Positions 5,014 through 25,299 of a DNA stretch of 54,485 nucleotides are shown here, in pieces. Under the pieces are notes generated by a model. It did not search any database and had not been told where the DNA came from. It saw only the letters and a list, made by a program, of their open reading frames with translations. Each line of letters starts with the position of its first letter. Within the stretch, counting starts at the first letter, position 1. Origin of the DNA: Patescibacteria group bacterium (GTDB lineage Bacteria > Patescibacteriota > Minisyncoccia > Phycocordibacterales > Phycocordibacteraceae); the NCBI GenBank assembly GCA_019752595.1, contig JAIELV010000001.1:1-54485 (forward strand), written 5' to 3'. A program made the position numbers and the translations under genes.

Positions 5014-5016
5014 TCT

Positions 5017-6486: not shown

Positions 6487-6535
6487 CAGTTTCCACACAT
6501 GGCTTCGTGCGCACCTCGAGTGGTAAACTAGGCGC

Positions 6536-7543: not shown

Positions 7544-7545
7544 GT

Positions 7546-7749
7546 ATGGAAGTTTTTAAAGAAATTTTAAAGAGAAATCCTATTAAGGTTTTGTTTTTTT
7601 TGGGGTTTTTTCTAGTAGCCTCTTATTTTGTGTATGAAAGATATTGGGTTAGAGAATGTACTCAAAAGATAATTAAAATCGAAGGGGGTGCCGAAGAGTA
7701 TTCAACTCTCTTTAAGGTATGTATGGGATTAAGAGGTTTAAAACCCTAA
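7546..7749 (+). CDS. Small membrane protein (67 aa), hypothetical
   Basis: One TM helix (VLFFLGFFLVASYFVY). It fills the gap-rpiB spacer and is visibly more AT-rich than its neighbours. Confidence 0.45.
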   Translation: MEVFKEILKRNPIKVLFFLGFFLVASYFVYERYWVRECTQKIIKIEGGAEEYSTLFKVCMGLRGLKP

Positions 7750-7757
7750 GTTAATTT

Positions 7758-8240: not shown

Positions 8241-8908
8241 TAGAAGTCATTCCGTCACTCCCTGCGCTTACTTTTGAAGAACTTCGTACGAAAGTTGGGA
8301 TGGTGACAGGTTTGGTGTCTACGTTTCAGATTGATATCTGTGATGGCATGTTTACCCCGCAACGTTCGTGGCCAATGAATCCTGGCGACAAACCTCAATT
8401 TACAGATATTGTGCGCGGAAAAGAAAAACTTCCAAATGCTGGCCAGATTGATTTTGAAGTTCACTTCATGACGCATACGCCAGAAAAACTAATACCTGAT
8501 TGGCTAAAGGCAGGAGCGATGCGTTTTTTGGTGCATGTTGAAGCGCGGCACGATTTCGCGGCATGCCGGAGAGCAGCAGGAGACGGAGAGCTCGGGGTTT
8601 CACTCAATATAGGTACGGATGTTGCGCGCATCGCTGATTACGCCCCCTACATATCGGTCGTTCAACTTATGGGGATTGCAAAAATCGGCGCGCAAGGACA
8701 ACCATTTGACCCGCGCGTTTTAGATATGATTTCAGAAGTAAAGCAGAGGTACCCGAATGTTATAATTGAAGTCGACGGGTCGGTAAATATGGAAACGGCG
8801 CCGTTGCTGGTTAAAGCAGGCGCTACGCGCCTTGCTCCAGGGTCATACGTTTTTCGTTCAGAAAATCCAAAAGCCGCGATTGACGCTTTGAAATCAATTT
8901 CCACATGA
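8237..8908 (+). CDS. rpe: Ribulose-phosphate 3-epimerase family protein (divergent)
   Basis: IDICDGMFTP, EVHFMTHTP and VDGSVN segments match the Rpe TIM-barrel pattern. ATGA overlap with rpiB, and pentose-phosphate genomic context. Confidence 0.7.
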   Translation: MIEVIPSLPALTFEELRTKVGMVTGLVSTFQIDICDGMFTPQRSWPMNPGDKPQFTDIVRGKEKLPNAGQIDFEVHFMTHTPEKLIPDWLKAGAMRFLVHVEARHDFAACRRAAGDGELGVSLNIGTDVARIADYAPYISVVQLMGIAKIGAQGQPFDPRVLDMISEVKQRYPNVIIEVDGSVNMETAPLLVKAGATRLAPGSYVFRSENPKAAIDALKSIST

Positions 8909-9744
8909 GTCACATTACAGAAAAAGAAATTCAGGCACTTGAAGAAAAAGCGCGCGAGGCGCGCATTACTACTATCCGCTCCTTAGTTCAGGCAAAGTCT
9001 GGACACACAGGAGGTTCACTCGGCATGGCGGATATTTTTACTGCGCTCTATTTTCATATTGCAAAGCATGACCCTAAAAATCCTGATTGGGTTGAGCGAG
9101 ATTACATCGTTCTTTCAAACGGACACATCACTCCAATTCGCTATGCCGTCATGGCGCATGCGGGGTATTTTCCTGTTGAGGAGTGTTTGACGCTTCGAAA
9201 GCTTGGTAGTCGTTTGCAGGGGCACCCTGAACGCGACATGCTCCCAGGTGTTGAAACGACATCTGGCCCGTTAGGAAGTGGTACATCGCAAGCGGCGGGT
9301 ATGGCATATGCACTCAGAATGGATAAAAAACCAAACCGCGTGTATTGCTTGACCTCGGACGGTGAACAGCAAGAAGGAAACACGTGGGAGGGGGTGATGT
9401 TTGCAGGTAAACACAAACTTTCCAATCTCGTTGTATTTATGGATAGAAACTACATCCAGATTGAAGGTTCGACTGAGGATGTGATGCCATTGGAGCCATT
9501 GGCAGATAAATATCGAGCATTCAACTGGCACGTGATTGAAATAGACGGGCACAACATGGAGGCAATCGTCGACGCATGCGAACAAGCGAAAGCAATTAAA
9601 TCAAAACCGACTTTGATACTTGCCAATACGATTATGGGGAAGGGTGTGAAAGAAATAGAAGGAAACTACAAGTGGCACGGTACGGCACCAAAACCCGAAC
9701 AGGAAGAATCGTTTATAAAGCAAATCCGCGAAGCGGCAAAATAG
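8905..9744 (+). CDS. Transketolase, N-terminal (TPP pyrophosphate-binding) subunit
   Basis: SGHTGGSLGMADIFTALYF, GHP....GVETTSGPLGSG and DGEQQEGNTWE. The 279-aa size fits a split tkt. Confidence 0.92.
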   Translation: MSHITEKEIQALEEKAREARITTIRSLVQAKSGHTGGSLGMADIFTALYFHIAKHDPKNPDWVERDYIVLSNGHITPIRYAVMAHAGYFPVEECLTLRKLGSRLQGHPERDMLPGVETTSGPLGSGTSQAAGMAYALRMDKKPNRVYCLTSDGEQQEGNTWEGVMFAGKHKLSNLVVFMDRNYIQIEGSTEDVMPLEPLADKYRAFNWHVIEIDGHNMEAIVDACEQAKAIKSKPTLILANTIMGKGVKEIEGNYKWHGTAPKPEQEESFIKQIREAAK

Positions 9745-9745
9745 T

Positions 9746-10300
9746 ATGATTTTCGGAATTGCTCTTATCGCTTTTGCCGCCTTTCTTGCTTACAAAGAGA
9801 AATTCGAGATAATCCCCGGGACCGTTATTTCAGGTGCCTCACTTAAAGTGTTCGCCCTCGCTGAAGCTGTGGCGGGTTTTTATTTTATCTATCCGGGCTT
9901 TTTCCCTTTACCACAAACTGCAGAAGTTGGTTTGGCGGTACTCGTTTTTGTGAATCTTTGCGCCGCTGCCGCGATGTATTTTTCCAATACAGACGTACGA
10001 GAAAACCCACCACAGAATTACACCCCGTTTTTTTTAAGGAAATCTTTCCATATCAGTCTTCTTGAAAACGGAGCAATTACCGCAAGCGTAATGTGCGCAC
10101 TCGTAGGTTCGTTCTTTGTAATGGTAGTTCAAGGTCCGACAACTGAATGGAAGTATCTCATGCTCGGTCTTGCGGTTCTTTACGTTGTTGGAATTTTCGT
10201 AGTGGCGAAAAAAATAGCAAAAAGACAATCGTATATCCAATCTGCAGTCGTACTGGTTTTTGCTCTATTACCAGCCTGTCTATTTTTCGCTTTCACTTAA
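9746..10300 (+). CDS. Polytopic membrane protein, hypothetical
   Basis: About 5-6 hydrophobic helices and no recognised family. It lies between the two transketolase halves with 1-nt and 6-nt spacers. Confidence 0.6.
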   Translation: MIFGIALIAFAAFLAYKEKFEIIPGTVISGASLKVFALAEAVAGFYFIYPGFFPLPQTAEVGLAVLVFVNLCAAAAMYFSNTDVRENPPQNYTPFFLRKSFHISLLENGAITASVMCALVGSFFVMVVQGPTTEWKYLMLGLAVLYVVGIFVVAKKIAKRQSYIQSAVVLVFALLPACLFFAFT

Positions 10301-10306
10301 AAAACT

Positions 10307-11293
10307 ATGTTGAATCCTGACGCAAAATTGGTCCCTGGAATTTTAGAGGGGAAATTTGAAAAAAAGCCGACACGTGACGGGCTGGGTAACGGAACGGTGG
10401 AGGCAGGGAAGCTGGATCCGAACGTTGTCGTCCTTTCAGCGGACCTTGGTGACTCCACTCGTGCGGCGTGGTTTCAGAAAGCGTTCCCTGATCGGTTTAT
10501 TGAAGTTGGCGTTGCTGAGCAAAACCTTGCAACGGTAGCCTCTGGCATGGCGGCAGTCGGCAAAGTGCCATTTATTGCTTCATACGCTGCATTTTCTCCA
10601 GGGCGTAATTGGGAGCAGATTCGTACCACTATCGCCTTGAATGACCAGAAAGTAATCGTCTGCGGTATGCATGCAGGAATTCAGACAGGCCCTGACGGGG
10701 CAACGCACCAGATGCTTGAAGACATTGCGATGATGCGCGCGTTGCCGAACATGAACGTGATTGTGCCGATGGACTCTGAAGAAGGCCGCAAAGCAATTTT
10801 GGCCGCAGCGAAAGCAAAGGGTCCGTCGTATGTGCGTTTTGGCCGCGCAAATGAACCAGTACTCACGACGCCCGAAACGCCGTTTGAGATTGGGAAATCT
10901 TTGAAAATTTGGGAATCAAAAGAACCAAAAGTTACCATTCTTGTCACAGGATCTTTGCTGTATCAGGCAATTGTTGCGGCACAGTCACTTGAAGCAAAAG
11001 GAGTCGGTTCCATAATTCTCGATGTACACACGGTAAAGCCGTTAGATAAGGAGGGAATACTTGATGCAGTCAAAAAGACAAAGCGTGTGGTGACCGTTGA
11101 AGAGCACCAGATAAACGGAGGTTTCGGTGGCGCCATAGCCGAACTTTTGGGAGAAGAATTTCCTGTTCCCATGGTGAGAGTGGGGATGTTGGATATTTTC
11201 GGCCAGTCTGGCGAGCCTGATGAATTGGTAAAATTCTTCCATTTAGATGCACCGGGTATACAAGAAGCTGTAGAGAAAGTTTTGAAAAAATAA
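10307..11293 (+). CDS. Transketolase, C-terminal (pyrimidine-binding plus C-terminal domain) subunit
   Basis: FIEVGVAEQNLATVASGMA, GPDGATHQMLEDIAMMRALPNM and a PSYVRFGR-type segment. Confidence 0.92.
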   Translation: MLNPDAKLVPGILEGKFEKKPTRDGLGNGTVEAGKLDPNVVVLSADLGDSTRAAWFQKAFPDRFIEVGVAEQNLATVASGMAAVGKVPFIASYAAFSPGRNWEQIRTTIALNDQKVIVCGMHAGIQTGPDGATHQMLEDIAMMRALPNMNVIVPMDSEEGRKAILAAAKAKGPSYVRFGRANEPVLTTPETPFEIGKSLKIWESKEPKVTILVTGSLLYQAIVAAQSLEAKGVGSIILDVHTVKPLDKEGILDAVKKTKRVVTVEEHQINGGFGGAIAELLGEEFPVPMVRVGMLDIFGQSGEPDELVKFFHLDAPGIQEAVEKVLKK

Positions 11294-11298
11294 TCCCA

Positions 11299-11952
11299 AT
11301 GAGGATTTACATCATTCGTCACGGAGAGACCGAAAATAATGCAGGTGGTATTCGTCAGTCGCGTGAAGGATATTTGTCGGAGGAGGGAATTCAGCAAGCG
11401 CGCGCGTTAGGCGCAAACCTTTCAGATATTGTTATTGATTCTATTTTTACGTCCACCTATCCGCGCGCAAAACAAACAGCAGATATTATTTCTTCTCTTG
11501 GCAAAAAACTACTGGTGCAGGAATCGGAGTATCTAACCGAAATCAAACTCCCTTCGGAGATTGTAGGGAAGCCCACGAATGACAGGAAATCACTTCAGAT
11601 TTTGAAATGGATTCAAGGTCGTATGGGAGGGGGCGATCGCTATTCCGATGAAGAAACATATAACGAGTATGTATCACGGGCGTACAAGGTGCTCGACCAC
11701 ATTACAAAAACTGGATTCCAAAATGTTGTGTTGGTGACACACCATCGGTTCATTCATATTTTAGTCAGTGTTATTTTGTTGCGCGAGGAACTCACGCCGC
11801 GTCTGTTCGCCTCGCTTCGAGATAAAATGTACATAAGTAATACAGGAATCACAGTACTCGAGAGTACTACTGATCACCCCGAATGGCGTCTGTTGACCTT
11901 AAACGAACACTCACATTTGAAAGCGCTATCCGCAGCTTCACCCGCGAAGTAA
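11299..11952 (+). CDS. Histidine phosphatase (phosphoglycerate-mutase family) protein
   Basis: MRIYIIRHGETENN (RHG catalytic motif) and a later VTHH histidine. Confidence 0.8.
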   Translation: MRIYIIRHGETENNAGGIRQSREGYLSEEGIQQARALGANLSDIVIDSIFTSTYPRAKQTADIISSLGKKLLVQESEYLTEIKLPSEIVGKPTNDRKSLQILKWIQGRMGGGDRYSDEETYNEYVSRAYKVLDHITKTGFQNVVLVTHHRFIHILVSVILLREELTPRLFASLRDKMYISNTGITVLESTTDHPEWRLLTLNEHSHLKALSAASPAK

Positions 11953-12216: not shown

Positions 12217-12657
12217 ATGCATACAAGAATTGAGAGAGGTTTCACTTTAATTGAACTGATGGTCGTGATTTCTATCATTGGCCTTTTATCCGCAGGCATA
12301 CTCTCCAGCCTTTCGACGGCAAGCCAGCGGAGCAGGGACGCAAACAGAATTGCAGACATAAAACAAATTCAGAATGCACTTGAGCTCTACGCGGCAGACA
12401 ATGGTGGGCGGTACCCCGTTGTTGCTAGTAGTTTTGTATCCCAACTCAACTCCGCTCTGGTACCAAAATACATACCCACCTTGTCTGAAGACCCAATACC
12501 TGCACGAGCTCGCTATCGATACTGGACGACAACCGCAACGTCGTACTCAATACTCATAGACCTCGAATCAGACAACGCATCGGGAGTTGCGTGGTGCCTG
12601 ATAAAACTCGGAACAGGATACACAGCTTGGGATCAGTATCCTGCGTGCGATCTTTAG
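12217..12657 (+). CDS. Type IV pilin / pseudopilin with a prepilin N-terminal cleavage-methylation motif
   Basis: RG|FTLIELMVVISIIGLLS is the class III signal peptide. Confidence 0.85.
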   Translation: MHTRIERGFTLIELMVVISIIGLLSAGILSSLSTASQRSRDANRIADIKQIQNALELYAADNGGRYPVVASSFVSQLNSALVPKYIPTLSEDPIPARARYRYWTTTATSYSILIDLESDNASGVAWCLIKLGTGYTAWDQYPACDL

Positions 12658-13619
12658 GCTTTCGCCAGCTTTTCTATCTTCTCTTTTGTAAGCAATCCCG
12701 CCTGCGCGCCGATGCCCTGCACTACGTAGGCTGAATTTATTGTTCCTCGTTTCATCGCGTCCTGTAGCGAATATCCCATTGTCAAAAATGCGCTTGTCGT
12801 TGAAGCAAATGCATCGCCCGCGCCCGTTCTTTGAAGCGGGGGTTTCGGATCGGGATACATAGGGATGTGTGTCATCACTCCATTTTCAAATGCATGAGCG
12901 CCATGCACGTCTTCGGTAATCACCACGATTTTTGGTCCAAGTTCGCGAATGGAGCGTGCCATCATTTCTACATTTGCGGTTGCGTCTTTCAATCCTAAAA
13001 TGCGCGCCGCTTCGTCGCGGTTCACGACAAAGAGGTTGGTACGCGCGTAAATTCTCTTCAGGCGATCGGTGCCCATTTTCATCTGGAATGTGCCTGGCTG
13101 AAAAGTGAGGAAGATATTTGGATGTGCTTCAAGATAATCCGCGAGGTCGTCGTGGTATTTCTCCGTTCCTTCGCCGATTGAAGAGAGATACATGGTTTTC
13201 GGCTCGGGCAGATCTTTCGGGAATACGTACTGGTAAGGGTGGTGTTTGACCAAAATTGTACGATCAACACCGAACCACAGTACATAGTGGTAGTTTGTTG
13301 GTATGCCTTGGTGCTTGGTGATAAATGAGGTATCAACATTCTCTTCTTGTAGATGTGCAAGGATTTTGTCGCCGTTTTGGTCTGCACCAACGTTTGAGAT
13401 GAAGGCGGTTTTGAGGCCAAGGCGAGCCGCGGCGACCGCTGCATTTGCCGAATTGCCGACGCCGTAGACCACGGTGCTTGATTCGAAGGGGATTTTATCT
13501 CCAAAACGCATGGAAATAGTGCATGCAGTGTTATCAATGTTGCAGTTTACGGTTGCGTCTTTCAGTCGAATAAAATCGTCAACAACGGTGTCGCCAATAG
13601 CTATAAAATCGTAGTTCAT
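12654..13619 (-). CDS. PfkB-family carbohydrate/nucleoside kinase
   Basis: N-terminal IAIGDTVVD, a GVGNSANAAVAAARLG-type GG region and C-terminal TGAGDAFAS. Confidence 0.85.
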   Translation of the reverse strand: MNYDFIAIGDTVVDDFIRLKDATVNCNIDNTACTISMRFGDKIPFESSTVVYGVGNSANAAVAAARLGLKTAFISNVGADQNGDKILAHLQEENVDTSFITKHQGIPTNYHYVLWFGVDRTILVKHHPYQYVFPKDLPEPKTMYLSSIGEGTEKYHDDLADYLEAHPNIFLTFQPGTFQMKMGTDRLKRIYARTNLFVVNRDEAARILGLKDATANVEMMARSIRELGPKIVVITEDVHGAHAFENGVMTHIPMYPDPKPPLQRTGAGDAFASTTSAFLTMGYSLQDAMKRGTINSAYVVQGIGAQAGLLTKEKIEKLAKA

Positions 13620-13633
13620 CTATCCATTATATA

Positions 13634-15286
13634 ATGGAACAAATGTCTGTTGCTGATGATTTAAAAAATATTGTACAGGGGAGCGTCGACACCTCTGAAA
13701 TCGCACTTGAGAAAGCAAGTCATGACGCTAGCTTGTTTGCAGTTCGACCACAAGCAGTCGTGAAAGTCGTAGATGAGAAAGATGTTTCCGCGTTAGTGAC
13801 GTATGTGTCAGAGCAAAAAAAAGCAGGCGTCGATATATCAGTCACTGCGCGCGCAGCAGGGACGGACATGTCGGGTGGGCCTTTGAATTCAGGCATTATC
13901 GCAGACATGGGTCTGCTGGACCGCGTGATTGAGGTAGGAGATTCTTACGCTGTGGTGGAGCCAGGGGCGTATTTTCGTGATTTTGATAAAAAAACAAAAG
14001 AAAAAAATCTGGAATTGCCGAGTTACACCGCCAGCCGTGAGTGGTGCACGGTTGGTGGGATGGTCGCAAATGACTCGGGAGGGGAGAAAAATCTAAAATA
14101 TGGAAAAACGTCTCGGTACGTAGAAGAGTTGGATGTCGTTCTCGCTGACGGTATGGTGCATACCTTGAAAAAACTTGAAGGGGAAGCGCTCACGCAAAAA
14201 CTGGCAGAAAAAAACTTTGAAGGCGGCATGTATCGAGAAGTTTCCGCGTTACTTAAAAAAAATTCTGATGTCATTGCACACGCGAAGCCAATAGTTAGCA
14301 AAAATTCAGCAGGGTATGCCTTGTGGGATATCGGTGACGGAGTAACCTCACTTGATATGCCTCGACTTTTTTCAGGCTCACAAGGAACATTAGGCATTAT
14401 CACCAAAATAAAATTTTCTTTGGTACGACCCAAACCGTTCTCATCAATGGTGGTGATGTTTCTTTCCAATATTAATGAACTTTCAACTATCGTTCCTGAT
14501 GTGTTGGCTGATAAGCCAGACAGTTTTGAATCCTACGACGACAACACATTCAAACTTGCAGTGAAATATTTCCCCGAGTTTGCGTTGCAGATGAAAGGAA
14601 ACTTGTTCACGCTCGGCTGGTCGTTTTTACCAGAAGTATTTATGGCGGCAACGGGCGGCGTGCCGAAACTTATTTTGCTTGCGGAATTTCGAGGTGAGAC
14701 ACAAGAGGAGGCTCTCCAGAAGACAGAAGCCCTGTACACACGACTGAAGAAAGACAATCCGCACCTGAATGCCCGTATCGCAAAGAATGAACAGGAGTCA
14801 CGAAAGTACTGGGTCGTGCGACGCGAAAGCTTTAACCTACTCAGAAAAAAAGTACGCGGCATGAGAACTGCACCGTTCATAGACGATTTTGTTGTGCCTC
14901 CTCTTACCCTGCCTGAATTCTTCCCGAAATTAACCGAAATTCTTTCTCACTACGATTTGCTGTACACAGTTACTGGCCACGTGGGCGACGGCAATTTCCA
15001 TATCATTCCTCTTATAGACCCCAAGCGGAAAGATATGCCAAGAATAATTGATGAGCTTTCACATAAGGTGTACGACCTTGTGCTCTCTTATAATGGTTCA
15101 ATCAGCGGGGAACATAATGACGGTCTGGTGCGCACGCCCTATGTAGAGAAGATGTTCGGAGGCGAGATGTATGCTCTTTTTGGTGAGATAAAACGCATAT
15201 TTGACCCCTTGAATATCTTCAATCCAGGCAAAAAGACGGGAACCGATTTCGCGCAATCTGCAAGCCATTTAGATATAGGCACATGA
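13634..15286 (+). CDS. FAD-linked oxidase (GlcD / D-lactate dehydrogenase-like)
   Basis: FAD_binding_4-type ARAAGTDMSGGPL, and C-terminal GHVGDGNFH plus SGEHNDG motifs. Confidence 0.8.
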   Translation: MEQMSVADDLKNIVQGSVDTSEIALEKASHDASLFAVRPQAVVKVVDEKDVSALVTYVSEQKKAGVDISVTARAAGTDMSGGPLNSGIIADMGLLDRVIEVGDSYAVVEPGAYFRDFDKKTKEKNLELPSYTASREWCTVGGMVANDSGGEKNLKYGKTSRYVEELDVVLADGMVHTLKKLEGEALTQKLAEKNFEGGMYREVSALLKKNSDVIAHAKPIVSKNSAGYALWDIGDGVTSLDMPRLFSGSQGTLGIITKIKFSLVRPKPFSSMVVMFLSNINELSTIVPDVLADKPDSFESYDDNTFKLAVKYFPEFALQMKGNLFTLGWSFLPEVFMAATGGVPKLILLAEFRGETQEEALQKTEALYTRLKKDNPHLNARIAKNEQESRKYWVVRRESFNLLRKKVRGMRTAPFIDDFVVPPLTLPEFFPKLTEILSHYDLLYTVTGHVGDGNFHIIPLIDPKRKDMPRIIDELSHKVYDLVLSYNGSISGEHNDGLVRTPYVEKMFGGEMYALFGEIKRIFDPLNIFNPGKKTGTDFAQSASHLDIGT

Positions 15287-16236
15287 ATTGGGTTCGTTTT
15301 TTTTCGGATATTACAAAGAGTGACACTGGAAGTGCAGGCGGAAAGGGTGCGTCTTTGGGTGAAATGACTCGGGTTGGAATTTCCGTTCCTCCTGGCTTCG
15401 TCGTACTCTCGGCTGCTTTTGAAAATTTTCTTGAGATGACCGATCTCAATGTTGAGATTGATGCAATTTTGAAAACAGTCAACACAAAAACGATGCATAC
15501 GGTAGAGGATGCTTCAGGAAAAATTCAGAGTCTGATTCTTTCAAAAGAAGTTCCAGAAGACACCAAAAGCGAGATTCTCTCGGCCTTTAAAGAGTTGGGA
15601 GCCGATTTTGTCGCCGTGCGCTCAAGCGCGACTGCGGAGGACAGCGCAAGTGCTGCATGGGCAGGGCAGTTGGATACCTTTTTGAATACAACTGAAAGCA
15701 CGCTTCTGGCAAACCTGCGCAAATGCTGGGCGTCATTGTTTACACCGCGAGCTATTTTCTATCGTTTTGAGAAAGGATTGCATTTGGAAAAAGTTTCCGT
15801 TGCTGTAGTCGTCCAGAAAATGATCCAAAGCGAAGTCGCAGGCATAGCGTTTTCGGTGCATCCTGTAACTGAGGATAGAGACCAGATAATTATTGAGGCG
15901 GGTTGGGGCTTAGGGGAAGCTGTTGTGTCGGGCGAAATTACGCCAGACTCGTATGTGGTTACAAAAAAAGCGCGGAAAATTATAGACGTGAATATTTCGG
16001 AACAGGAGCGGGGGATTTTTAAAAAGTCGGATGGCGGGAGTGGATGGATGGATATTTCGTCTGAGAAAATAAAAAAACAAAAGTTATCTGAAGAACAAAT
16101 CCTTGCGCTTACGGAAGAGGTGGTGCGTATTGAAAAGCATTATGACTTTCCAGTCGATGTTGAGTGGGCGCTTGAGGGTGGAAAGTTCTACATAACTCAA
16201 AGCCGCCCCATAACGACCCTTTCTTCACTCGGTTAA
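15283..16236 (+). CDS. PPDK_N-type ATP-grasp (nucleotide-binding) domain protein, stand-alone
   Basis: GGKGASLGEM, VAVRSSATAEDS and EWALEGGKFYITQSRPIT match the N-terminal domain of PEP synthase / rifampicin phosphotransferase. ATGA overlap with the upstream gene. Confidence 0.85.
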   Translation: MNWVRFFSDITKSDTGSAGGKGASLGEMTRVGISVPPGFVVLSAAFENFLEMTDLNVEIDAILKTVNTKTMHTVEDASGKIQSLILSKEVPEDTKSEILSAFKELGADFVAVRSSATAEDSASAAWAGQLDTFLNTTESTLLANLRKCWASLFTPRAIFYRFEKGLHLEKVSVAVVVQKMIQSEVAGIAFSVHPVTEDRDQIIIEAGWGLGEAVVSGEITPDSYVVTKKARKIIDVNISEQERGIFKKSDGGSGWMDISSEKIKKQKLSEEQILALTEEVVRIEKHYDFPVDVEWALEGGKFYITQSRPITTLSSLG

Positions 16237-16262
16237 GAGTAAGGTTACTTTTTAGGGGAAAT

Positions 16263-17729
16263 ATGACGAGTCGTCTGAAACATATTAAAGAGAAAATGAA
16301 GAATAAGAAGTGGCAATTTACATACGACCGGCAAATGTCATACCAGCGTATTCGTCTTTTTTCTTACGGTTATCGAAGTCAAATATCCAAATTTTTTGAT
16401 GTGCGTATTGATTCCGAAATATATAGAATTAACCGAGGTGTTGTTGGGGTATATTACGAGGAGAACGATCACAAAGCAGCTTTCACAAAAGTCAGGGCGC
16501 TTTTTTCTGGAACGGAAAGCGAGCACTGGTTTGAAAAACTAAAAAAAGTAATTGAAGAAGGGTATGTGGCGTTTATTTCTTTCACAAATACTTTGCCGAG
16601 TTCGTATGAAGATTTTGATGACTCACAGTTAGGAAACATAGTATCTGCTTGTTTCCGCGCTAACGAATCGGTCTCGCTTCCTACGTGGCTTTTGTATTTA
16701 TACGTTGAAGAGATAATCGCCGACGAGTTACGCGCAAGAATTTATTCGGAGATTTCTCAAAAAACCACGCCTGAAGAGCTTTTTAAATTGTTGTCGCATT
16801 CGACAAAGGCACTCCCCCTTGATGTGTATAATCGGGAGCTGTATTCAATCGCGCTTCTGCCCGAATCGGAAAAGGAAGTGGCACTTGCGGCTTTTGCGGA
16901 TAGATATAAGAGCTGGGGAGTGTACGATATTCTCTATCTGCCCCCCGACGTCGCATTTCACGCAAAAAAAATAAAAGATGTCGGCGCCGATTCCGCACGT
17001 GAAGAGATAAGAAAAATTGATGAGAAATACGAGCTCCAGAGGAGTGCAATTGAGAAATATGCCCATCATTGGGAACGCAATGAACGACTTAATAAACTTG
17101 TGTCGCTGTATCGGCTCTATGCTGATTTTAAAGATTGGAAAAATTATTATCGTGAATCCCATTCACTCAAAATGCGCTTTCTCTACGAAGATGTAGCAAA
17201 ACGCCTTAGTCTTTCTTTAGAAGATTCCGCGTTCTTGACCGAGGCGGAAATCATTGATGCCCTTGCTGGTGGCAAGATTCCTGAGGTGTTTGTAATTGAG
17301 AAAAGGCGAGAAAACAGTGTAGTTCTGGTTTTAGACGACCAAGAATACATTATTACGGACCTTGAAGAGTTAGCTGTTGTAGATAATGTAGTTGATATAA
17401 AAACCTCTCTGGGCGAAGTGTATGGAACTTCTGCATTTCGCGGTGTAGTGACTGGGAGGGTGGTTATTGTTGCGAGCGCAGCGGACGCACACAAGCTGAA
17501 GGAGGGGGATATACTTATTGCAAGCACGACTCGACCCGACTATGCTCCGTTTATGCGCGCATGCGCAGGATTTGTCACAAATGAGGGCGGATCTCTTTCT
17601 CATGCGGCTATTATGGCTCGGGAACTAAAGAAGCCTTGTGTTATTGGTACGAAAAACGCTACCAAAGTATTTGCGAATGGTGACATGGTGGAGGTTGATG
17701 CAGAGAGGGGTATAGTAAGGAAAATATGA
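16263..17729 (+). CDS. Unknown helical domain fused to a C-terminal PEP-utiliser phosphohistidine swivel domain (paralog 1)
   Basis: C-terminus GVVTGRVVIV...GDILIASTTRPDYAPFMRACAGFVTNEGGSLSHAAIMARELKKPCVIGT carries the catalytic His. AGGGGA lies 4 nt before the ATG. Confidence 0.8.
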   Translation: MTSRLKHIKEKMKNKKWQFTYDRQMSYQRIRLFSYGYRSQISKFFDVRIDSEIYRINRGVVGVYYEENDHKAAFTKVRALFSGTESEHWFEKLKKVIEEGYVAFISFTNTLPSSYEDFDDSQLGNIVSACFRANESVSLPTWLLYLYVEEIIADELRARIYSEISQKTTPEELFKLLSHSTKALPLDVYNRELYSIALLPESEKEVALAAFADRYKSWGVYDILYLPPDVAFHAKKIKDVGADSAREEIRKIDEKYELQRSAIEKYAHHWERNERLNKLVSLYRLYADFKDWKNYYRESHSLKMRFLYEDVAKRLSLSLEDSAFLTEAEIIDALAGGKIPEVFVIEKRRENSVVLVLDDQEYIITDLEELAVVDNVVDIKTSLGEVYGTSAFRGVVTGRVVIVASAADAHKLKEGDILIASTTRPDYAPFMRACAGFVTNEGGSLSHAAIMARELKKPCVIGTKNATKVFANGDMVEVDAERGIVRKI

Positions 17730-18325
17730 GCCATAACCCAGTCTATTCGCACTTCAAGGGGAAAATAAGCAGGGCAGAAGAAGTTGAGCGGAAGGTGGTT
17801 TCTATAATCCTTAAGAGTCAGATTCCTGATCACAAACGCGCGTGGAGTAAAACGTTTGAATTGAAGCACAGCTCCTCAGTCGCTCAAATAGGAAGAATAC
17901 TCGCCCAAAAGCGAGGTCTTGATTCAGACCTCGCCGCAATTATTTGCGTACTCCACGACATCGAAGTAAATGCCACTGGCGACGCAAAGCAGCACGCACA
18001 TAAAGGCGCGCTTCGGGCCCGAAAGATGCTCGAAGCTATGCGCGCCTTTTCAGCAAAAGAGATAGAGCTCATCGTTGGTGCTATTAAACATCACAGCGAT
18101 AAACACATAGTGAGTAGGAATCCGTATGTGGAGCTGGTAAAAGATGCAGACGTTTTTGACTGTGGTCTCTATGCAGGGGTGCACGATGCGTACGTGTTTG
18201 AAAAACCATTGGTGCAGCTTAAAGAATACTTTGCGCGTGTGAAGCGGGTGCGTAAAGAGCTCGGCCTTCCCAAAGATCCTCAGTGGGATGTGTTTGGGTA
18301 TTTGAAGAAACATGGGAAACGATAA
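17726..18325 (+). CDS. HD-domain metal-dependent phosphohydrolase
   Basis: LKHSSSVA...VLHDIE (H...HD) and a later KHHSD. ATGA overlap with the upstream gene. Confidence 0.7.
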   Translation: MSHNPVYSHFKGKISRAEEVERKVVSIILKSQIPDHKRAWSKTFELKHSSSVAQIGRILAQKRGLDSDLAAIICVLHDIEVNATGDAKQHAHKGALRARKMLEAMRAFSAKEIELIVGAIKHHSDKHIVSRNPYVELVKDADVFDCGLYAGVHDAYVFEKPLVQLKEYFARVKRVRKELGLPKDPQWDVFGYLKKHGKR

Positions 18326-19592
18326 TCTAATAGCAAAATTTAAAGAGATGCGCTGGGAGGTATGGCTTCATCGTCGGTTTCCTCCATTTGTGACGTATCT
18401 CATGATGAAGCACGCAACTCCAAGTGCTTTTAAAGCACAAGGTCTTACGGGGCAATTTCCGTTCGCACTCTATGATACCGATGATTGGTACGGTACGCCC
18501 GAAATGTTTTCAGCTGCAGGCGCAGAGGCGGAGCAATTTCTTAAACAAAAAAGCATATTCGTACTTACGAAACAGTGTGAGGATGTATTGGAACGGGGGC
18601 GTCGCGAATTGCCGCAGTTATGTGAAAGCAAAGAATCTGCACGCGTTTTGTTTGAGAAGGTGCTTTCGATCATAGAGCCAGCAAATTTGTATATATGGAT
18701 TGCACACGCAGGTGAAGCATACTATTTGCCCGTTATACGTGAGGCATTGCGACCGCATGTAGGTGCTGATGAGTTGGAAAAATTCATCGGAGACATAAGT
18801 TTGCCCACCAAGAAGAACGCGCTTGCGCAGATGGAAGACGATATTCGTGCTGGCATGGAAACCGACGAGTTACATAAAAAATACGCGTGGCTGAAGTCGA
18901 GAGGAGGTTTCCAACCTGGGTACACACTAGAAGAGATTACTGATATTCAAGGAAAGACTTTAGAAAAAGCCCCTGTGCACCACTTGCGTCCCGAAATCCC
19001 TAACGGATTGGAAAACTTAATACACGAGGCTCGTGAATTGGTGTACTTACGCACACTACGAACTGATGCTTTGTATGAGATGTATTACTTGGCTCAACCA
19101 GTTTTTAGTCGGTACGCTGCAGAGATTGGAGTTCAGAACTTGAAAGACTATATTTCCGACGAATTGCTGGCAGGAGTAGTTTCTGAAGTTCCACACGAGT
19201 ATGCAATCCTAAAAGACGAGGACGATGTGGTTGTAGTTCGCGAATCAATTGTCGCGAATGAAAATCTCACAGTTACCGAAGTGAAGGGGGTTGTTGCGTA
19301 TAAGGGAGTTGTGCGCGGCAAAGTAAAGATTGTGCATGTCCCTGCTGAAAGCTCAAAAGTAGAAATGGGTGACATTTTAGTAACGAATATGACGACACCA
19401 GCTTTTGTTTCGGCGATGCATCGCGCCGCCGCTTTTGTAACTAACGAAGGAGGGATTACTTGTCATGCAGCAATTCTTGCTCGGGAGCTTAAAAAGCCGT
19501 GTATTACTGGCACAAAAAATGCCACAAAGATTCTGAAAGACGGTGACATGGTTGAGGTAGACGCGGAAGCGGGGGTCGTAAAGAGGCTTTGA
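18312..19592 (+). CDS. Unknown helical domain fused to a C-terminal PEP-utiliser phosphohistidine swivel domain (paralog 2)
   Basis: C-terminus GVVRGKVKIV...GDILVTNMTTPAFVSAMHRAAAFVTNEGGITCHAAILARELKKPCITGT. It overlaps the HD gene by 14 nt. Confidence 0.8.
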   Translation: MGNDNLIAKFKEMRWEVWLHRRFPPFVTYLMMKHATPSAFKAQGLTGQFPFALYDTDDWYGTPEMFSAAGAEAEQFLKQKSIFVLTKQCEDVLERGRRELPQLCESKESARVLFEKVLSIIEPANLYIWIAHAGEAYYLPVIREALRPHVGADELEKFIGDISLPTKKNALAQMEDDIRAGMETDELHKKYAWLKSRGGFQPGYTLEEITDIQGKTLEKAPVHHLRPEIPNGLENLIHEARELVYLRTLRTDALYEMYYLAQPVFSRYAAEIGVQNLKDYISDELLAGVVSEVPHEYAILKDEDDVVVVRESIVANENLTVTEVKGVVAYKGVVRGKVKIVHVPAESSKVEMGDILVTNMTTPAFVSAMHRAAAFVTNEGGITCHAAILARELKKPCITGTKNATKILKDGDMVEVDAEAGVVKRL

Positions 19593-19758
19593 TCCCGCAC
19601 TGAAATGTAGCGTTATAGCTACCGTTGCTTTCATCGAATTTCGCAGGAAATCCATTGCCTTCGGGGTTATTCCGTAGAGTCGCTATAAAACTCGAAAACG
19701 CCACATTGTAGTGACGGGACTTGGTTTTTTTCGGGCTTTCGGCTATACTCTTCAAACT

Positions 19759-20403
19759 ATGGTAATGGAAATAAAGGCGGCAAAACGAGGCGTTTCTGGC
19801 AAGGGCGCTCAGGCTTTAAGAAAAGAAGGTTTGATGCCAGCGGTTATTTATGGTCCGAAACAGGAGGCACTCCCAGTGGAAATGAACCAGCGCGAATTTG
19901 CAAAGGTACTTGAGAAGGCAGGTGAATCTACTGTTATCAGTCTTTCCGTTGACGGTGAGGCGCATAACGTTCTTATTCACGAAGTTGACTACGATCCTGT
20001 CACAAGCGTTGCACGTCACGCAGACTTTTACGCAATTGTGAAAGGTCAGAAGGTGAAAGTTGATATTGAACTTGAATTCGTCGGTGAGTCTTTGGCAGTG
20101 AAGCAGGGTGGAAACTTGGTAAAGGCGCTTCACGAACTTGAAGTTGAGGCAGACCCAATGAACCTTCCACATGATTTGAAGGTAGACATTTCAGTACTCG
20201 CTGAGCTTAACTCACACATTCTTGCAAAAGACATCCCACTTCCCGCAGGCGTCACGTTGGTCACTGGTGCAGACGAAGTAGTTGCAACAGTTGTTGAAGC
20301 AAAAGAAGAGGAGGTAGTGCCAGTCGCTGCACCTGATATGACCGCAATCGAGACATCTGTTGAGCGCGGCAAGAAAGAAGACGAAGCTGCCGCCGCCGAA
20401 TAA
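19759..20403 (+). CDS. rplY: Ribosomal protein L25 / Ctc form
   Basis: RKEGLMPAVIYG...VLIHEVDYDPV plus a C-terminal acidic extension. I moved the start to ATG 19759, 9 nt after a TATACT box; the track start at 19711 is a GTG upstream of that promoter. Confidence 0.88.
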   Translation: MVMEIKAAKRGVSGKGAQALRKEGLMPAVIYGPKQEALPVEMNQREFAKVLEKAGESTVISLSVDGEAHNVLIHEVDYDPVTSVARHADFYAIVKGQKVKVDIELEFVGESLAVKQGGNLVKALHELEVEADPMNLPHDLKVDISVLAELNSHILAKDIPLPAGVTLVTGADEVVATVVEAKEEEVVPVAAPDMTAIETSVERGKKEDEAAAAE

Positions 20404-20407
20404 AAAT

Positions 20408-20689
20408 ATGTTCGAAGCGGATGAACGATATTTAACTTCGCTTGCCCGTACGAACCCGAACCGAGCAAGTTTTTTAAGGACGTCATTAGAGAACTCCGAA
20501 GTCCCCCTGAGACAAACATCTGCCTTAGAGGAAGAACTATCTTCTCTTATTGCTGAACGTAAACATCAAGGCGAGGAGGCTCTGGCGCACCTTTGGAGAG
20601 GTATTCACGACGCTATCCCGAACGCGATTCATCCTGCAGTACGAGAAGGTATTTTCTTCGCGAACCTTACAAGAAAGAAAGAAAATTAA
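20408..20689 (+). CDS. Possible 93-aa hypothetical protein (doubtful)
   Basis: Open frame from ATG 20408 with no family recognised. A hairpin plus T6 (about 20437-20476) inside it could instead be the rplY terminator. Confidence 0.25.
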   Translation: MFEADERYLTSLARTNPNRASFLRTSLENSEVPLRQTSALEEELSSLIAERKHQGEEALAHLWRGIHDAIPNAIHPAVREGIFFANLTRKKEN

Positions 20690-20717
20690 ACTCCGCGCGT
20701 CTTGGTATACTGAACCA

Positions 20718-22094
20718 ATGACGCGTTTTTTTGTTGCCATGCTTGTGCTCTTTGCAGTTGCAGTTCCTGCTGTACTCTTTGCGGCTGCAACATCAGATGA
20801 TGTTCTGCGTCACCGAGCTGGACTTGAAGCACAACTTGCTCAGCTTGAACGGGAAATTGCCGAACAGGCTGGAGTACTTCAGGGTAAGCAAAAAGAGCGC
20901 CAGTCTTTAGAGCGCGACGTTGCCATACTGGATGCAGAAATACAGAAAGCAAAACTTTCCATCAAAGCCCGCGACCTGACCATTCAATCCCTGACTGACA
21001 ACATCGGCGAGAAAGCCGATACTATTGTTGCTTTGGATGAAAAATTAACTCGAGAGAAACAATCACTCGCTTCAATTTTCAGAAAGACGAATGAGATAGA
21101 TGATTACTCGTTGGTCGAATTCCTACTGTCGGCACGAAACGTATCTGATTTCTACGAAGACCTCGATTCGTTTGCGGCAATAAAAACAAACCTTCAGAAA
21201 TCGTTTGTGGTTATTGAGGGTACGAAAGTTGAAACCGCAGAAGAGAAAGCGACTCTCGAAGAGCGCAGAATTGAAGAAGAAGAACTCCGCGGACTGCAGG
21301 TACTCGAGCAACAGAAGATTGTGAAGCAACAGAAAGAACGTCAGAGCATTTTGAACGTGACGAAAGGGCAGGAGGCGGTGTACCAAAATATCCTCAAAGC
21401 AAAACAGAAAAGTGCTGCGCAGATTCGTTCAGAGCTTTTCGCGTTTCGCGATTCCGCCGCAATTCCGTTCGGCACCGCCCTTGATTATGCAAACCTTGCT
21501 TCGCAAAAAACAGGCGTAAGGCCCGCGCTCATTCTTGGTGTTTTGAAACAAGAAACTGATTTAGGTGCAAACTTAGGCTCTGGCACCTACTTACGCGACA
21601 TGCACCCGACGCGTGACGTGCCTGTGTATCTGAAAATCACTGAAGTTTTGGGCTACAACCCTTCCTCGATGCCCGTTTCAAAACAACCGAGTTACGGATG
21701 GGGGGGTGCGATGGGGCCTGGACAATTTATTCCTTCAACATGGGCGTGCTACGGAGGTTTTGTAAACGTCACGACGGGGAGGTGTGGAAAAGGGAAGGAT
21801 GGCACGTATAAAGGTCCGTGGGAGTATCAGGAATCAAAAGATGTGGTGAGAAGAAATCTTGGAAAGTCTACGGCATCCGATCCGTGGGCGCCGCAGGATG
21901 CGATTATGGCAACGGCGCTTTTGATGAAAGAGAACGGCGCCGCCGCGGGCACCGCGGCGGCGGAACGTCTTGCGGCACTACGTTACTTTGCAGGGTGGGG
22001 CAATGCAAATAAAAGCGCATACGCGTTTTACGGAGAAGGAGTTATGGACAATGCGGAATATTTCCAAAACCAAATAAACATTTTAGGTAATTAA
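20718..22094 (+). CDS. Secreted coiled-coil protein with a C-terminal lytic transglycosylase (SLT/MltB-like) domain
   Basis: Start set at ATG 20718, 6 nt after TGgTATACT, which gives the signal peptide MTRFFVAMLVLFAVAVPAVLFA. A long heptad-rich region follows. LKQETDLG (catalytic Glu) and GAMGPGQFIPSTW are present. Confidence 0.8.
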   Translation: MTRFFVAMLVLFAVAVPAVLFAAATSDDVLRHRAGLEAQLAQLEREIAEQAGVLQGKQKERQSLERDVAILDAEIQKAKLSIKARDLTIQSLTDNIGEKADTIVALDEKLTREKQSLASIFRKTNEIDDYSLVEFLLSARNVSDFYEDLDSFAAIKTNLQKSFVVIEGTKVETAEEKATLEERRIEEEELRGLQVLEQQKIVKQQKERQSILNVTKGQEAVYQNILKAKQKSAAQIRSELFAFRDSAAIPFGTALDYANLASQKTGVRPALILGVLKQETDLGANLGSGTYLRDMHPTRDVPVYLKITEVLGYNPSSMPVSKQPSYGWGGAMGPGQFIPSTWACYGGFVNVTTGRCGKGKDGTYKGPWEYQESKDVVRRNLGKSTASDPWAPQDAIMATALLMKENGAAAGTAAAERLAALRYFAGWGNANKSAYAFYGEGVMDNAEYFQNQINILGN

Positions 22095-23178: not shown

Positions 23179-25299
23179 ATGACGAAATCAATTTCAATTT
23201 CAGTACGTACCTTCGTTCTCGCTCTTGGAGGATTGATGCTTTTGTGTGCGCTGATTCCACAATCACTATTTGCTGCAGTGACAGTGTATGAAACACAAAG
23301 CAAGCGCGACTACTATGTCAAAGTCCAACCAGATATGCGTGCAAACGGCGGTATTGATGAAACTGCCGCGCATGGTTATCCGCAATACCAAGTGAATCAA
23401 GTTTCACCATCAGGACAACGCATTTGTTACCTCTATGACCCAACGGCATACCCGACCACGTGGTCCCTGGGCGGTTTTAATTCTCCAGGGAACAACAGAA
23501 TGGCGGCGTGGGACCCCGCGCAAAATAAGTGGATTGCTCGATCAGCGGGTACCTTTGGTAACAAACGCTACAACTACATCACCTGTAAAACTGACGCAAA
23601 GGCTGATACGTCGCTTACCGCAAACGGCGCTTCAGAAGTAACCATTAATCAGGGTGAATCAGTAAATCTTTCATGGTATTCGCAGTATGGCGCAATTCGT
23701 AAAGCCGCATGCACGGCGACCAATTTCTCGACATCAGTTACGGTGCCTGCGTCAACACAGACAGTTGTTTCGAACAATGATTGCGGAGGCATAAACGGAA
23801 TATTTGGTTTCAACGTGGTGCAATTTTTTGAAGATTCGGGCTCGCAGTGTGGCAATACTACTTTTGGACAAGTTTCAGTTCCTGCATCAACCAGTCAGCA
23901 ACCATTTTCGGGAAGCCGAGCAGTTACACCTACTCAGACAACCACGTACACGTATTCATGCACGAACGCGAACGGAACCAACACATCAAGCGTTACTGTG
24001 AATGTGGTACAGCCCGACGTTGAGCCCATTGCGGTTTCCTGTAGCCCAAGCCCGTCTTCGGGTGTCACTAACGAACCAATTACTTGGAGCTCACAAATTT
24101 TGAACCATGACGGCCCGTTTACCTACGAATGGCAGGGAAGTGATGGACTTACGGGAAATACTGCGTCCGTTCGAAAAACCTATACAAATCCAGGTACGAA
24201 AACTGCACGGTTGAAAGTGACGTTTACCCCCGAAGCAGGGGAAACACCACCGACACCTGTAATACCTACATCGACATGCCTCCCCGCGAATTCAGAAGTT
24301 CCCGCAGGCTACCTCTGTAGCGCAGGAGGGTACGAAACATTGCCGTGGGGTCAATGTTGCAGTGGAGTCGCCGCTCTTCGTTGCCCAGCACCAAATGAAC
24401 CCGCTGAGGCGTGGTGCACGGGACGCGCGGATACAGGTGGCGGTACGAATACAACGAGCGTGAGTGGAGCAGGGCAGTGGACACTTGTCGGTTCTGATAT
24501 TTCAGATCTTGCATGCGGTTCTGGTGGCCGACGATCCCCTGCGAATCAGACAAATGTACGTGCGAACATGCCTGACTGTTCAAGTGAAGATCCATCTGGC
24601 GAGGCATGTACTACTGTCGGCTCGAGATGCAAGTGGAATTCTTGGTCAGGCGCTACGTGTAACGTGGTCAGTGCGATTTTCCGATGCGCTGCTACACAGA
24701 GCACCACACCAACTCCTGTGACGCCGACACCAACAGCAGCAGGATTTTCGATAACCACGGACTGCGATGGCACAGTCTGCACCAATAGAACCTGTACTGC
24801 CGACCCAGGTGGCTCATCAGGAACTACCCCAAGTAACCCCAACGCAACTCCAAACGATCCTTCAGCGCCGACATGGGGAGTGACGATAAACCTCCCAGGA
24901 CAGTGCCTTAATACTTCTATGTGTGTTGGTGCTGATGTTTACAATCAAGGACTCGATTGCTCAAGAGAATTTGTACGCACCTGTCCGTTTGGATGTATGT
25001 CAGGACAGTGTGTCGCGCCTCGACCTGAAATTGACCTCAGTATTTCTCCTGCAGGTGTTCGAAGCGGTGAGTCATGTACCATTTCTGTTGCCGCTCGCCA
25101 CGTAGCACGATGCACCATCAGCGGACAAGGTATTTCACAGGTGCTGACGCCGAATGCTTCTGGCGTCGTTCCAAGCCAATCTTTCAGCACCCCTGGTATG
25201 ACCAACACCTCTGACTACACTGTTTCGTGTGAAAGTCCGCGCGGTAGCGTTACAGAGTCTGTACGATGCACACTCCTCCCAGTCTTTAGGGAGACTTAG
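23179..25299 (+). CDS. Secreted Cys-rich protein with Ig-like/PKD-like modules
   Basis: Signal peptide ...CALIPQSLFA. PKD-like segment FTYEWQGSDG...YTNPGTKTARLKV. Ig-like module ends TTTYTYSCTNANG...VTVNV and DYTVSCESPRG...VRC. The C-terminal half contains many Cys. Confidence 0.7.
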   Translation: MTKSISISVRTFVLALGGLMLLCALIPQSLFAAVTVYETQSKRDYYVKVQPDMRANGGIDETAAHGYPQYQVNQVSPSGQRICYLYDPTAYPTTWSLGGFNSPGNNRMAAWDPAQNKWIARSAGTFGNKRYNYITCKTDAKADTSLTANGASEVTINQGESVNLSWYSQYGAIRKAACTATNFSTSVTVPASTQTVVSNNDCGGINGIFGFNVVQFFEDSGSQCGNTTFGQVSVPASTSQQPFSGSRAVTPTQTTTYTYSCTNANGTNTSSVTVNVVQPDVEPIAVSCSPSPSSGVTNEPITWSSQILNHDGPFTYEWQGSDGLTGNTASVRKTYTNPGTKTARLKVTFTPEAGETPPTPVIPTSTCLPANSEVPAGYLCSAGGYETLPWGQCCSGVAALRCPAPNEPAEAWCTGRADTGGGTNTTSVSGAGQWTLVGSDISDLACGSGGRRSPANQTNVRANMPDCSSEDPSGEACTTVGSRCKWNSWSGATCNVVSAIFRCAATQSTTPTPVTPTPTAAGFSITTDCDGTVCTNRTCTADPGGSSGTTPSNPNATPNDPSAPTWGVTINLPGQCLNTSMCVGADVYNQGLDCSREFVRTCPFGCMSGQCVAPRPEIDLSISPAGVRSGESCTISVAARHVARCTISGQGISQVLTPNASGVVPSQSFSTPGMTNTSDYTVSCESPRGSVTESVRCTLLPVFRET

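Follow-up and report, generated by a model that had tools for sequence, protein, structure and literature searches.

A probable multi-component dikinase with one ATP-grasp protein and two phosphohistidine carriers in a Patescibacteria genome

Introduction

Several dikinases divide their work between two polypeptides. Phenylphosphate synthase (PpsAB), CreHI and HpeHI/AcvAB share one split design (PMC12167813), with an expected reaction of ATP + acceptor -> AMP + Pi + acceptor-phosphate (PMC12167813). In HpeHI, both subunits are required and a substitution of the swivel His abolishes kinase activity, while transfer of phosphate from one acceptor to another needs the swivel subunit only (PMC12167813). 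Here, a gene cluster of related design is analyzed in a 54,485 nucleotide (nt) stretch of DNA, called the window throughout (contig JAIELV010000001.1, assembly GCA_019752595.1, Patescibacteria group bacterium). The cluster encodes one ATP-grasp protein, two proteins with C-terminal phosphohistidine swivel domains (carriers A and B), and an HD-domain hydrolase. It was noticed in an original prediction, made from the letters alone, which proposed that one kinase module charges two alternative phosphocarriers and that a phosphatase may reset them. The analysis indicates that the cluster is most likely a multi-component small-molecule dikinase of the rifampicin phosphotransferase (RPH) type, whose single grasp serves two carriers with different acceptors.

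As in PpsAB, CreHI and HpeHI, the grasp domain is on its own polypeptide, the carriers combine a predicted RPH-type acceptor domain with a C-terminal His swivel, and the His lies in a T/SxxGGxxxH motif. In contrast, those systems have one grasp per swivel subunit, whereas the locus has a 1:2 ratio and its relatives have up to 13 carriers. They act on phenolics within aromatic-catabolism clusters, whereas the locus has no carboxylase or aromatic pathway genes. Unlike them, it is hosted by the candidate phyla radiation (CPR) as well as the DPANN lineages, has shorter N-terminal domains (~320-380 amino acids, aa) and is accompanied by HD and His_Phos-like accessories. Further, PpsA, CreH and HpeH are ~45% identical to one another, a kinship that was not seen for the locus carriers; the NCBIfam PRK08296 models, which we take to represent the PpsA/HpeH type, match only their swivel part (carrier A ~380-486, carrier B ~316-425). 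Because PpsAB, CreHI and HpeHI are already established, a split dikinase alone is not new; what appears to be new is a one-to-many layout, typical of CPR and DPANN and accompanied by a conserved HD gene. In a study of DPANN genomes, genes of this kind were labelled phenylphosphate synthase and taken as a sign of phenol use, with the remark that the carboxylase was missing (PMC8091004). The searched open-access papers and bioRxiv, whose coverage is incomplete, yielded no account of arrays of swivel carriers or of fusions of several modules in either CPR or DPANN.

Results

Organization of the gene cluster

The genes of the locus and the first gene downstream are as follows.
13634-15286, plus strand: FAD-linked oxidase, GlcD or D-2-hydroxyacid dehydrogenase-like, 550 aa (Pfam PF01565 and PF02913).
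15283-16236, plus strand: stand-alone ATP-grasp (PPDK_N) protein, 317 aa, the proposed general kinase component (PF01326).
16263-17729, plus strand: carrier A, 488 aa, with an N-domain (~1-380, N-domain family 11) and a C-terminal swivel (PF00391 and AlphaFold2 model).
17726-18325, plus strand: HD-domain metal-dependent phosphohydrolase, 199 aa (PF01966, 8e-11).
18312-19592, plus strand: carrier B, 426 aa, with an N-domain (~1-318, N-domain family 3) and a C-terminal swivel (PF00391 and AlphaFold2 model).
19711-20403: ribosomal protein L25, the first gene downstream of carrier B.

The layout given in the original prediction was recovered throughout: a stand-alone 317-aa ATP-grasp, 488- and 426-aa proteins with paralogous C-terminal swivels and much more divergent N-termini, an HD hydrolase between them, and three gene overlaps. 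In particular, the DNA shows an ATGA junction between oxidase and ATP-grasp genes (15283-15286, a 4-nt overlap), a second ATGA junction between the carrier A and HD genes (17726-17729), and a 14-nt overlap of the HD and carrier B genes (ATGGGAAACGATAA, 18312-18325). The ATP-grasp gene is separated from carrier A by a 26-nt gap, and an AGGGGA Shine-Dalgarno-like site lies ahead of carrier A, whose start in the source's gene call is M12 (477 aa instead of 488). All are separate open reading frames (ORFs) in differing frames, each with its own start. A scan for promoters and terminators found fewer promoter-like sites than in shuffled sequences and was not informative.

As anticipated, Pfam returned PF01326 and PF00391 without the phosphoenolpyruvate (PEP)/pyruvate barrel PF02896, for which none of the five locus proteins gave a hit at E <= 0.1. 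HPr and EII domains were likewise absent from the cluster (Pfam). The PADLOC defence models gave no match except a weak dGTPase-like HD hit (8.7e-05 over 34 residues), and membership in a defence system was rejected.

The ATP-grasp protein

The sole Pfam domain of the 317-aa protein is PPDK_N (PF01326), which covers residues 17-314 with an E-value of 2e-98, and the chain ends at the usual ...QSRPITTL domain boundary. Its closest solved relatives are PEP synthase 8a8e (1.9e-68) and then the RPH ATP-grasp structures 5hv6/5fbs (~5e-57), followed by 9goj, a 387-aa stand-alone chain (2.1e-54). The NCBIfam PigC and RedH models also match it, at 1.5e-73 and 3.2e-71. Mutagenesis of RPH identified Lys22, Arg117, Thr136 and Glu297 as important ATP-site residues (PMC4844700), and all four equivalents are kept here as K21, R113, T132 and E294.

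The carrier proteins

The swivel domain PF00391 occupies residues 413-483 of carrier A (1.3e-25) and 351-421 of carrier B (2.5e-26), and the two proteins can be aligned only over their C-terminal ~133 aa, where they are 47% identical (1e-36). By sequence, both swivels are closest to PEP synthase 8a8e (6.8e-26 and 3.7e-23), with RPH at only ~1e-13 (6.8e-26 vs 6.7e-13). Carrier B carries the motif GGITCHAAI, which is the PEP-synthase signature GGxT[SC]HAAI, and carrier A carries GGSLSHAAI. The swivel domain is homologous to the N-terminal domain of Enzyme I.

Both carrier families are rare: a collection of 5.8 billion protein clusters contains 10 clusters of the carrier A family and 20 of the carrier B family. 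All members have PF00391 as the only Pfam domain, and nearly all have a constant length (~485 aa for A, ~430 aa for B); the exceptions are two clusters of only 371 and 286 aa. An exhaustive HMMER search of 1.84 billion representatives found the carrier B N-domain in only 63 clusters at 50% identity. Because both families recur as stand-alone proteins of constant length, and because free grasp genes of 312-342 aa occur in 14 related loci, the genes are not fragments.

AlphaFold2 models built on the carrier-family alignments reached a pLDDT of 87.6 (carrier A) and 89.7 (carrier B), with helical N-domains. Foldseek searches of the PDB with these models ranked RPH first for both: 5fbu/5hv1/5fbt for carrier A (E ~1e-13, query TM-scores 0.52-0.55) and 5fbu/5fbt/5hv1 for carrier B (E from 4e-14 to 8e-13, query TM-scores 0.47-0.53). 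All matches ranking below RPH cover the swivel only. In structure-based alignments, the whole carrier models are only 13-16% identical to RPH. The carrier A family profile aligns residues 269-485 to RPH 647-866, which comprise the end of the rifampin-binding domain and the swivel, and the RPH-like PRK06241 models reach into the N-domain of carrier A only (242-486). Because of the structural matches and the carrier A profile alignment, the N-domain once described as unknown is modelled as an RPH-type acceptor-binding domain, helical and without a TIM barrel.

Direct homology between the two N-domains was not supported, as hhalign on these regions alone gave E=0.088. They are linked transitively, however: single-linkage clustering joins 238 of 332 related N-domains, with A-type and B-type members connected through intermediates (shortest path of 5 steps), and they also share their fold. 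Across the N-domains of nine further families and one 626-aa carrier, Pfam detects only PF00391, with the exception of a helix-turn-helix (HTH) on the 626-aa carrier. In carriers A and B, Pfam found no output or DNA-binding domain.

The suggested domain order (grasp, acceptor, swivel) agrees with that of RPH and the PRK06241 'PEP synthase-like' proteins, and RPH is the best structural match of both carriers. The differences are that RPH carries its one acceptor domain on a single chain of 865 aa, while the locus is split, with its acceptor-plus-swivel part duplicated and diversified, and that the locus grasp and swivels are nearer to true PEP synthases in sequence. PEP synthase and pyruvate phosphate dikinase, the closest sequence matches of the grasp and swivels, differ in turn by their PF02896 TIM barrel, and PEP synthase has a central swivel, whereas the locus swivel is C-terminal and its acceptor domain helical and RPH-like. 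Because there is no barrel, the locus is not a PEP synthase; nor is it a single-chain RPH or a member of the phosphotransferase system (PTS).

Candidate catalytic residues

Four codon positions mark the predicted active sites.
17601-17603, plus strand: CAT codon of His447 of carrier A, the predicted phospho-carrying His, in the motif TNEGGSLSHAAI; invariant in its family.
19464-19466, plus strand: CAT codon of His385 of carrier B, within TNEGGITCHAAI, a motif of the PEP-synthase type; invariant in its family.
17130-17141, plus strand: codons of K290-D291-W292-K293 of carrier A, a proposed phosphate-binding motif of the acceptor site, from conservation and RPH alignment.
19050-19061, plus strand: codons of R247-T248-L249-R250 of carrier B, whose basic pair corresponds in the module alignment to carrier A K290/K293.

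The T/SxxGGxxxH motif reads TNEGGSLSH447 in carrier A and TNEGGITCH385 in carrier B, each invariant in its family. The catalytic column holds a His in 331 of 332 related modules, and the loss in homologues that would have spoken against a carrier function was not seen. In RPH, the second phosphotransfer cannot proceed without Arg666 and Glu667 of the acceptor domain, whose network also includes Lys670 (PMC4844700). The profile alignment places K290-D291 of carrier A on R666-E667 as conservative substitutions, with K293 about one helical turn further. These residues lie in the motif FKDWKN, all of whose positions (F289, K290, D291, W292, K293 and N294) are invariant in the carrier A family; the corresponding invariants of the carrier B family are R247, T248, R250 and D252. 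R247 and R250 share their columns with K290 and K293, and carrier B has no direct sequence alignment to RPH. Across the 332 modules, the first of these columns is R or K in 234 (70%) and the second in 288 (87%). The conservation of the His and of both basic columns supports a putative RPH-like phosphotransfer site in each N-domain.

Related loci in CPR bacteria and DPANN archaea

At least 594 relatives turned up when GTDB representative genomes were scanned using the alignment of carrier B. The sources of the best 78 loci are many, from the CPR groups Kaiser-, Magasanik-, Falkow-, Kerfeld-, Moran-, Taylor-, Nealson-, Woese-, Staskawicz-, Komeili- and Gracilibacteria and from the DPANN groups Woese-, Pace-, Nano- and Micrarchaeota. 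A set of 85 non-redundant loci was surveyed with custom hidden Markov models (HMMs), after fetching 10 kb on either side of each relative. These loci, numbered with the prefix L below, contain 356 swivel modules, with a median of 3 and a maximum of 13 per locus.

Exactly one free grasp gene of 312-342 aa is present in 14 of the 85 loci and a grasp is fused to one or more modules in 16, so that a free or fused grasp accompanies 30 arrays; the two forms occur together in none of the 85, and more than one grasp-bearing gene per locus was never seen, even though related loci hold 2-13 carriers. For example, a single grasp precedes 11 carriers in Taylorbacteria (L078), a stand-alone 314-aa grasp precedes five swivel-only genes in L003, and a 1,313-aa grasp-plus-swivel protein precedes four carriers and then L25 in L004, which is syntenic with the window. 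In DPANN, uninterrupted ORFs of 4,201, 3,761, 2,711, 2,374 and 2,217 aa each join one grasp to 4-8 tandem modules (L060:4868-17473; L052:473-11758; L043:4154-12289; L048:2208-9332; L076:8537-15190). Overall, such ORFs range from 1,994 to 4,201 aa and are natural fusions of whole carrier arrays. With one grasp and two carriers, the window locus is a minimal form of this system.

Community detection divides the N-domains into ~20 recurrent families, mostly with one copy per locus; family 11 (carrier A) is found in 7 loci and family 3 (carrier B) in 32. Swivels are ~54% identical between any two modules, even across both domains of life, compared to ~16% for the N-domains, which fits a common docking partner combined with diversified acceptor sites.

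Some array members have additional domains or regulators as neighbors. A 582-aa carrier has an N-terminal XRE-type HTH_3 domain (L089:5394-7142, the same as L011:5374-7122) and the 626-aa carrier has an ArsR/MarR-type winged helix (L020:17033-18913); both could be transcription factors under the control of phosphorylation or of a bound ligand. TrmB-family (sugar-specific) regulators adjoin DPANN carriers on the minus strand at L092:9183-9944 and L047:11277-12857, and the L092 regulator is divergently transcribed from an HD-carrier pair.

HD hydrolase and His_Phos-like genes

The HD family comprises more than 380 clusters with 55-73% identity across CPR and DPANN. Its invariant residues (H48, H77, D78, H90, H123 and D140) read as an HD site of the two-metal type. 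In all six independent contexts examined, from bacteria and archaea, the HD gene is directly upstream of or overlaps a swivel carrier: the window, L091, L011/L089, L067, L092 (Micrarchaeota, 11-nt overlap) and L093 (Magasanikbacterium, in the order HD-carrier-grasp). The carriers that follow belong to families 2, 3 and 4, so that a specific tie to carrier B is ruled out and the HD protein is a generic, carrier-family-independent accessory of carrier arrays. Its target could be the phospho-His, a pyrophosphoryl intermediate (by release of the gamma-phosphate) or the phosphorylated products; the closest solved structures, YedJ 3gw7 (5e-4) and 2pq7, are uncharacterized. L093 has a second HD gene (L093:15578-16210, 210 aa), 5 kb downstream of its HD-carrier-grasp trio and with no carrier beside it.

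Another recurrent component of the arrays is a set of divergent His_Phos_1-like proteins (~170-310 aa) that bear RHG/RHA motifs; they are present in 15 of the 47 arrays that have three or more modules. Phosphatase-like genes number 23 inside arrays and 3 in the flanks (p=7e-4), a suggestive enrichment, as the search seeds came mostly from arrays. One form of ~281-303 aa is mostly missed by Pfam (L003:7148-7993; L004:7087-7998; L010:8693-9604; L091:2085-2993; L094:171-1046), and in L003, L010 and L094 it adjoins a carrier A-type (family 11) gene. This recurrent gene was considered as a hidden PEP/pyruvate barrel and rejected, since it has RHG/RHA motifs and matches His_Phos_1 instead. Replacement of the His_Phos-like gene by a non-orthologous HD gene was also rejected: because L091 carries both side by side, the two are not interchangeable.

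Discussion

Proposed mechanism

The analysis favors a multi-component dikinase, with good though incomplete confidence, and takes as its templates the reaction steps of RPH (PMC4844700) and HpeHI (PMC12167813). The 317-aa ATP-grasp would bind ATP and pass its beta-phosphate to a partner's swivel His, releasing AMP and Pi, with carriers A (His447) and B (His385) competing for the grasp. The charged swivel would then swing back onto its own helical N-domain, where the basic pair (K290/K293 in A, R247/R250 in B) may position the phosphate for transfer to the bound acceptor, which would differ between the carriers. We infer that a single grasp charges both carriers with ATP and that small molecules are the acceptors, and any role of the HD protein in the system has the same standing. 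The gene counts and the grasp-module fusions are the reason for the one-to-many reading. The proposal of one kinase module for alternative carriers is thereby supported, as relatives have 2-13 carriers, never more than one grasp-bearing gene, and archaeal fusions of grasp to modules.

Several observations weigh against this reading. The carrier B sequence profile matches RPH in the swivel only, so that its connection to the RPH acceptor domain comes from the structure match and the module alignment. The surveyed loci were picked by similarity to carrier B and are not an unbiased census, and 48 of the 85 show no grasp within the fetched 10 kb on either side. Because of these 48 loci, the one-to-many relation is a local statement, and additional grasp genes may exist elsewhere in the genomes. 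Further, in L001 (also L002), a complete 806-aa PEP synthase (PpsA) with grasp, swivel and PF02896 barrel precedes four carriers (3427-10532), and could possibly charge them in trans or from PEP. The swivel identities (0.545 vs 0.535) indicate negligible genome-specific co-adaptation, which was dropped as evidence for a shared local partner. Finally, the cost of two high-energy bonds per phosphorylation makes the expansion of such a system odd in energy-poor fermenters.

Alternative explanations

The strongest alternative, though an unlikely one, is that the carriers form a signalling or regulatory phospho-relay, where the phosphorylation state of the swivel His would signal the status of ATP/PEP or the presence of a ligand and would control partner proteins or transcription. 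It would account for the array members with DNA-binding domains (the XRE-type HTH of the 582-aa L089/L011 carrier and the ArsR/MarR-type winged helix of the 626-aa L020 carrier) and for the TrmB regulators beside DPANN arrays. A phosphatase accessory would also fit a reset function, and the His_Phos_1 superfamily includes the phosphohistidine phosphatase SixA. However, carriers A and B themselves have no DNA-binding or other output domain, the RPH-type basic pair is kept in most modules and points to phosphotransfer to an N-domain ligand, and ~20 conserved N-domain families resemble a substrate repertoire more than a relay.

Less probable again is a chemistry like that of PigC and RedH, in which a carbonyl or hydroxyl of the acceptor, briefly activated by the phosphoryl group, undergoes condensation or substitution, yielding unphosphorylated products of biosynthesis or remodelling. 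The prodiginine ligases PigC, RedH and HapC follow the same three-domain logic in identical order, and their NCBIfam models match the locus carriers (RedH at 270-486 of carrier A) as well as the grasp. Pathways of the dikinase family later remove the phosphate; the Hpe pathway carboxylates and then dephosphorylates (PMC12167813). Yet PigC, RedH and HapC are single chains that condense two pyrroles within biosynthetic clusters, whereas there is no such cluster at the locus and no condensation partner or biosynthetic gene recurs in the arrays. The minimal biosynthesis for which CPR and DPANN genomes are known also disfavors this reading.

It is very unlikely that PEP is the source of the carriers' phosphate, passed on by an Enzyme I-like protein or PEP synthase encoded elsewhere, with the 317-aa grasp used otherwise. 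L001 and L002, where the complete PpsA stands directly before four carriers and no separate grasp gene is found, would be candidates for such charging, and the PEP-synthase-type motif of carrier B and the nearness of the swivels to PEP synthase agree with it. But the L001 PpsA has the only PEP/pyruvate barrel detected across the surveyed loci (custom HMM), the window has no PF02896 barrel, its grasp gene is in the same tightly packed string as the carriers, 30 surveyed arrays come with a grasp, and the grasp subunit is required in characterized two-component homologues (PMC12167813).

That the genes are decayed or mis-assembled fragments of one PEP-synthase or RPH-like gene, without a joint function, is effectively refuted: they superficially resemble pieces of one chain, with the grasp ending at a domain boundary, but they have differing frames, their own starts and Shine-Dalgarno-like sites, their catalytic residues are intact, and the split is kept at constant lengths in many genomes.

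A PTS-like design

With the dikinase reading preferred for the locus, its likeness to the PTS is one of design: a general component serves many substrate-specific phosphocarriers through phospho-His, and the HTH-fused carriers recall PTS-controlled regulators. Unlike the PTS, the donor would be ATP through an ATP-grasp rather than PEP through a TIM barrel, and there is no HPr, EIIA/B/C or membrane transporter. It is conceivable, although on balance doubtful, that CPR and DPANN share an ATP-driven PTS-like system, in which a general grasp charges ~20 families of substrate-specific carriers, encoded in arrays or giant fusions, to phosphorylate scavenged host metabolites and so capture or activate them, while HTH-fused carriers act as regulators that sense substrates and a dedicated HD hydrolase services the phospho-carriers. 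If so, ultra-small symbionts would have a metabolic strategy that defines their lineages and whose genes annotation pipelines now mislabel as PEP synthase or phenylphosphate synthase.

CPR and DPANN make up a large share of microbial diversity, with genomes below ~1 Mb in which many standard kinases and biosynthetic pathways are missing, and their handling of host-derived compounds is an open problem. That such genomes devote up to ~20 kb to RPH-type dikinase arrays sharing one grasp points to an important, unrecognized phosphorylation toolkit. The interest of the window locus is mainly the wider pattern that its minimal form exposes. There is also a correction to annotation, as array genes are being taken for PEP synthase or phenylphosphate synthase, and gluconeogenesis or phenol degradation is then deduced from them (PMC8091004). 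Direct tests of the system are feasible, with soluble proteins and a chemistry known from HpeHI and RPH, and the one-to-many architecture and its natural 4-8-module fusions are of interest for engineering modular kinases.

Neighboring genes and other observations

The FAD-linked oxidase was proposed to lead the operon. Its 4-nt ATGA overlap with the grasp gene stands, but none of the other 88 loci has a homologue by the custom HMM; it was ruled out as a member of the system and is regarded as a neighbor co-transcribed by chance. A D-2-hydroxyacid dehydrogenase follows the carriers in L001/L002. Across the survey, recurrent neighbors of the arrays are phosphohydrolases, regulators and housekeeping genes; neighboring genes for PfkB, phosphoglucose isomerase, transketolase, TrmB regulators, the S-adenosylmethionine cycle and flavins give only weak hints to the acceptors.

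In L008 (5514-12040), in-frame stops under translation table 11 run throughout the grasp and swivel genes, which indicates that the genetic code is an alternative one, like that of Gracilibacteria or Absconditabacteria. In another case, records labelled 'TPA_asm uncultured Gammaproteobacteria', 'Methanosarcinales' and 'Saccharibacteria' carry arrays that share the family order of Falkowbacteria chromosomes (L032 vs L022/L020), and the organism labels on these GTDB records are probably unreliable.

Within the window, a canonical His_Phos_1 protein of 217 aa (7.8e-30) is encoded at 11299-11952, 3.3 kb upstream of the cluster, next to an ORF for the C-terminal half of a transketolase (10307-11293). 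A PfkB kinase is encoded on the opposite strand at 12654-13619. Other genes are typical surface or cell-wall genes of CPR: a type IV pilin-like protein whose N-terminus carries the motif GFTLIELMVV (12217-12657), a 706-aa Cys-rich, Thr/Ser-rich secreted protein (23179-25299), and a coiled-coil protein (20550-22094), whose position after L25 matches that of the SLT_2 gene in L004.

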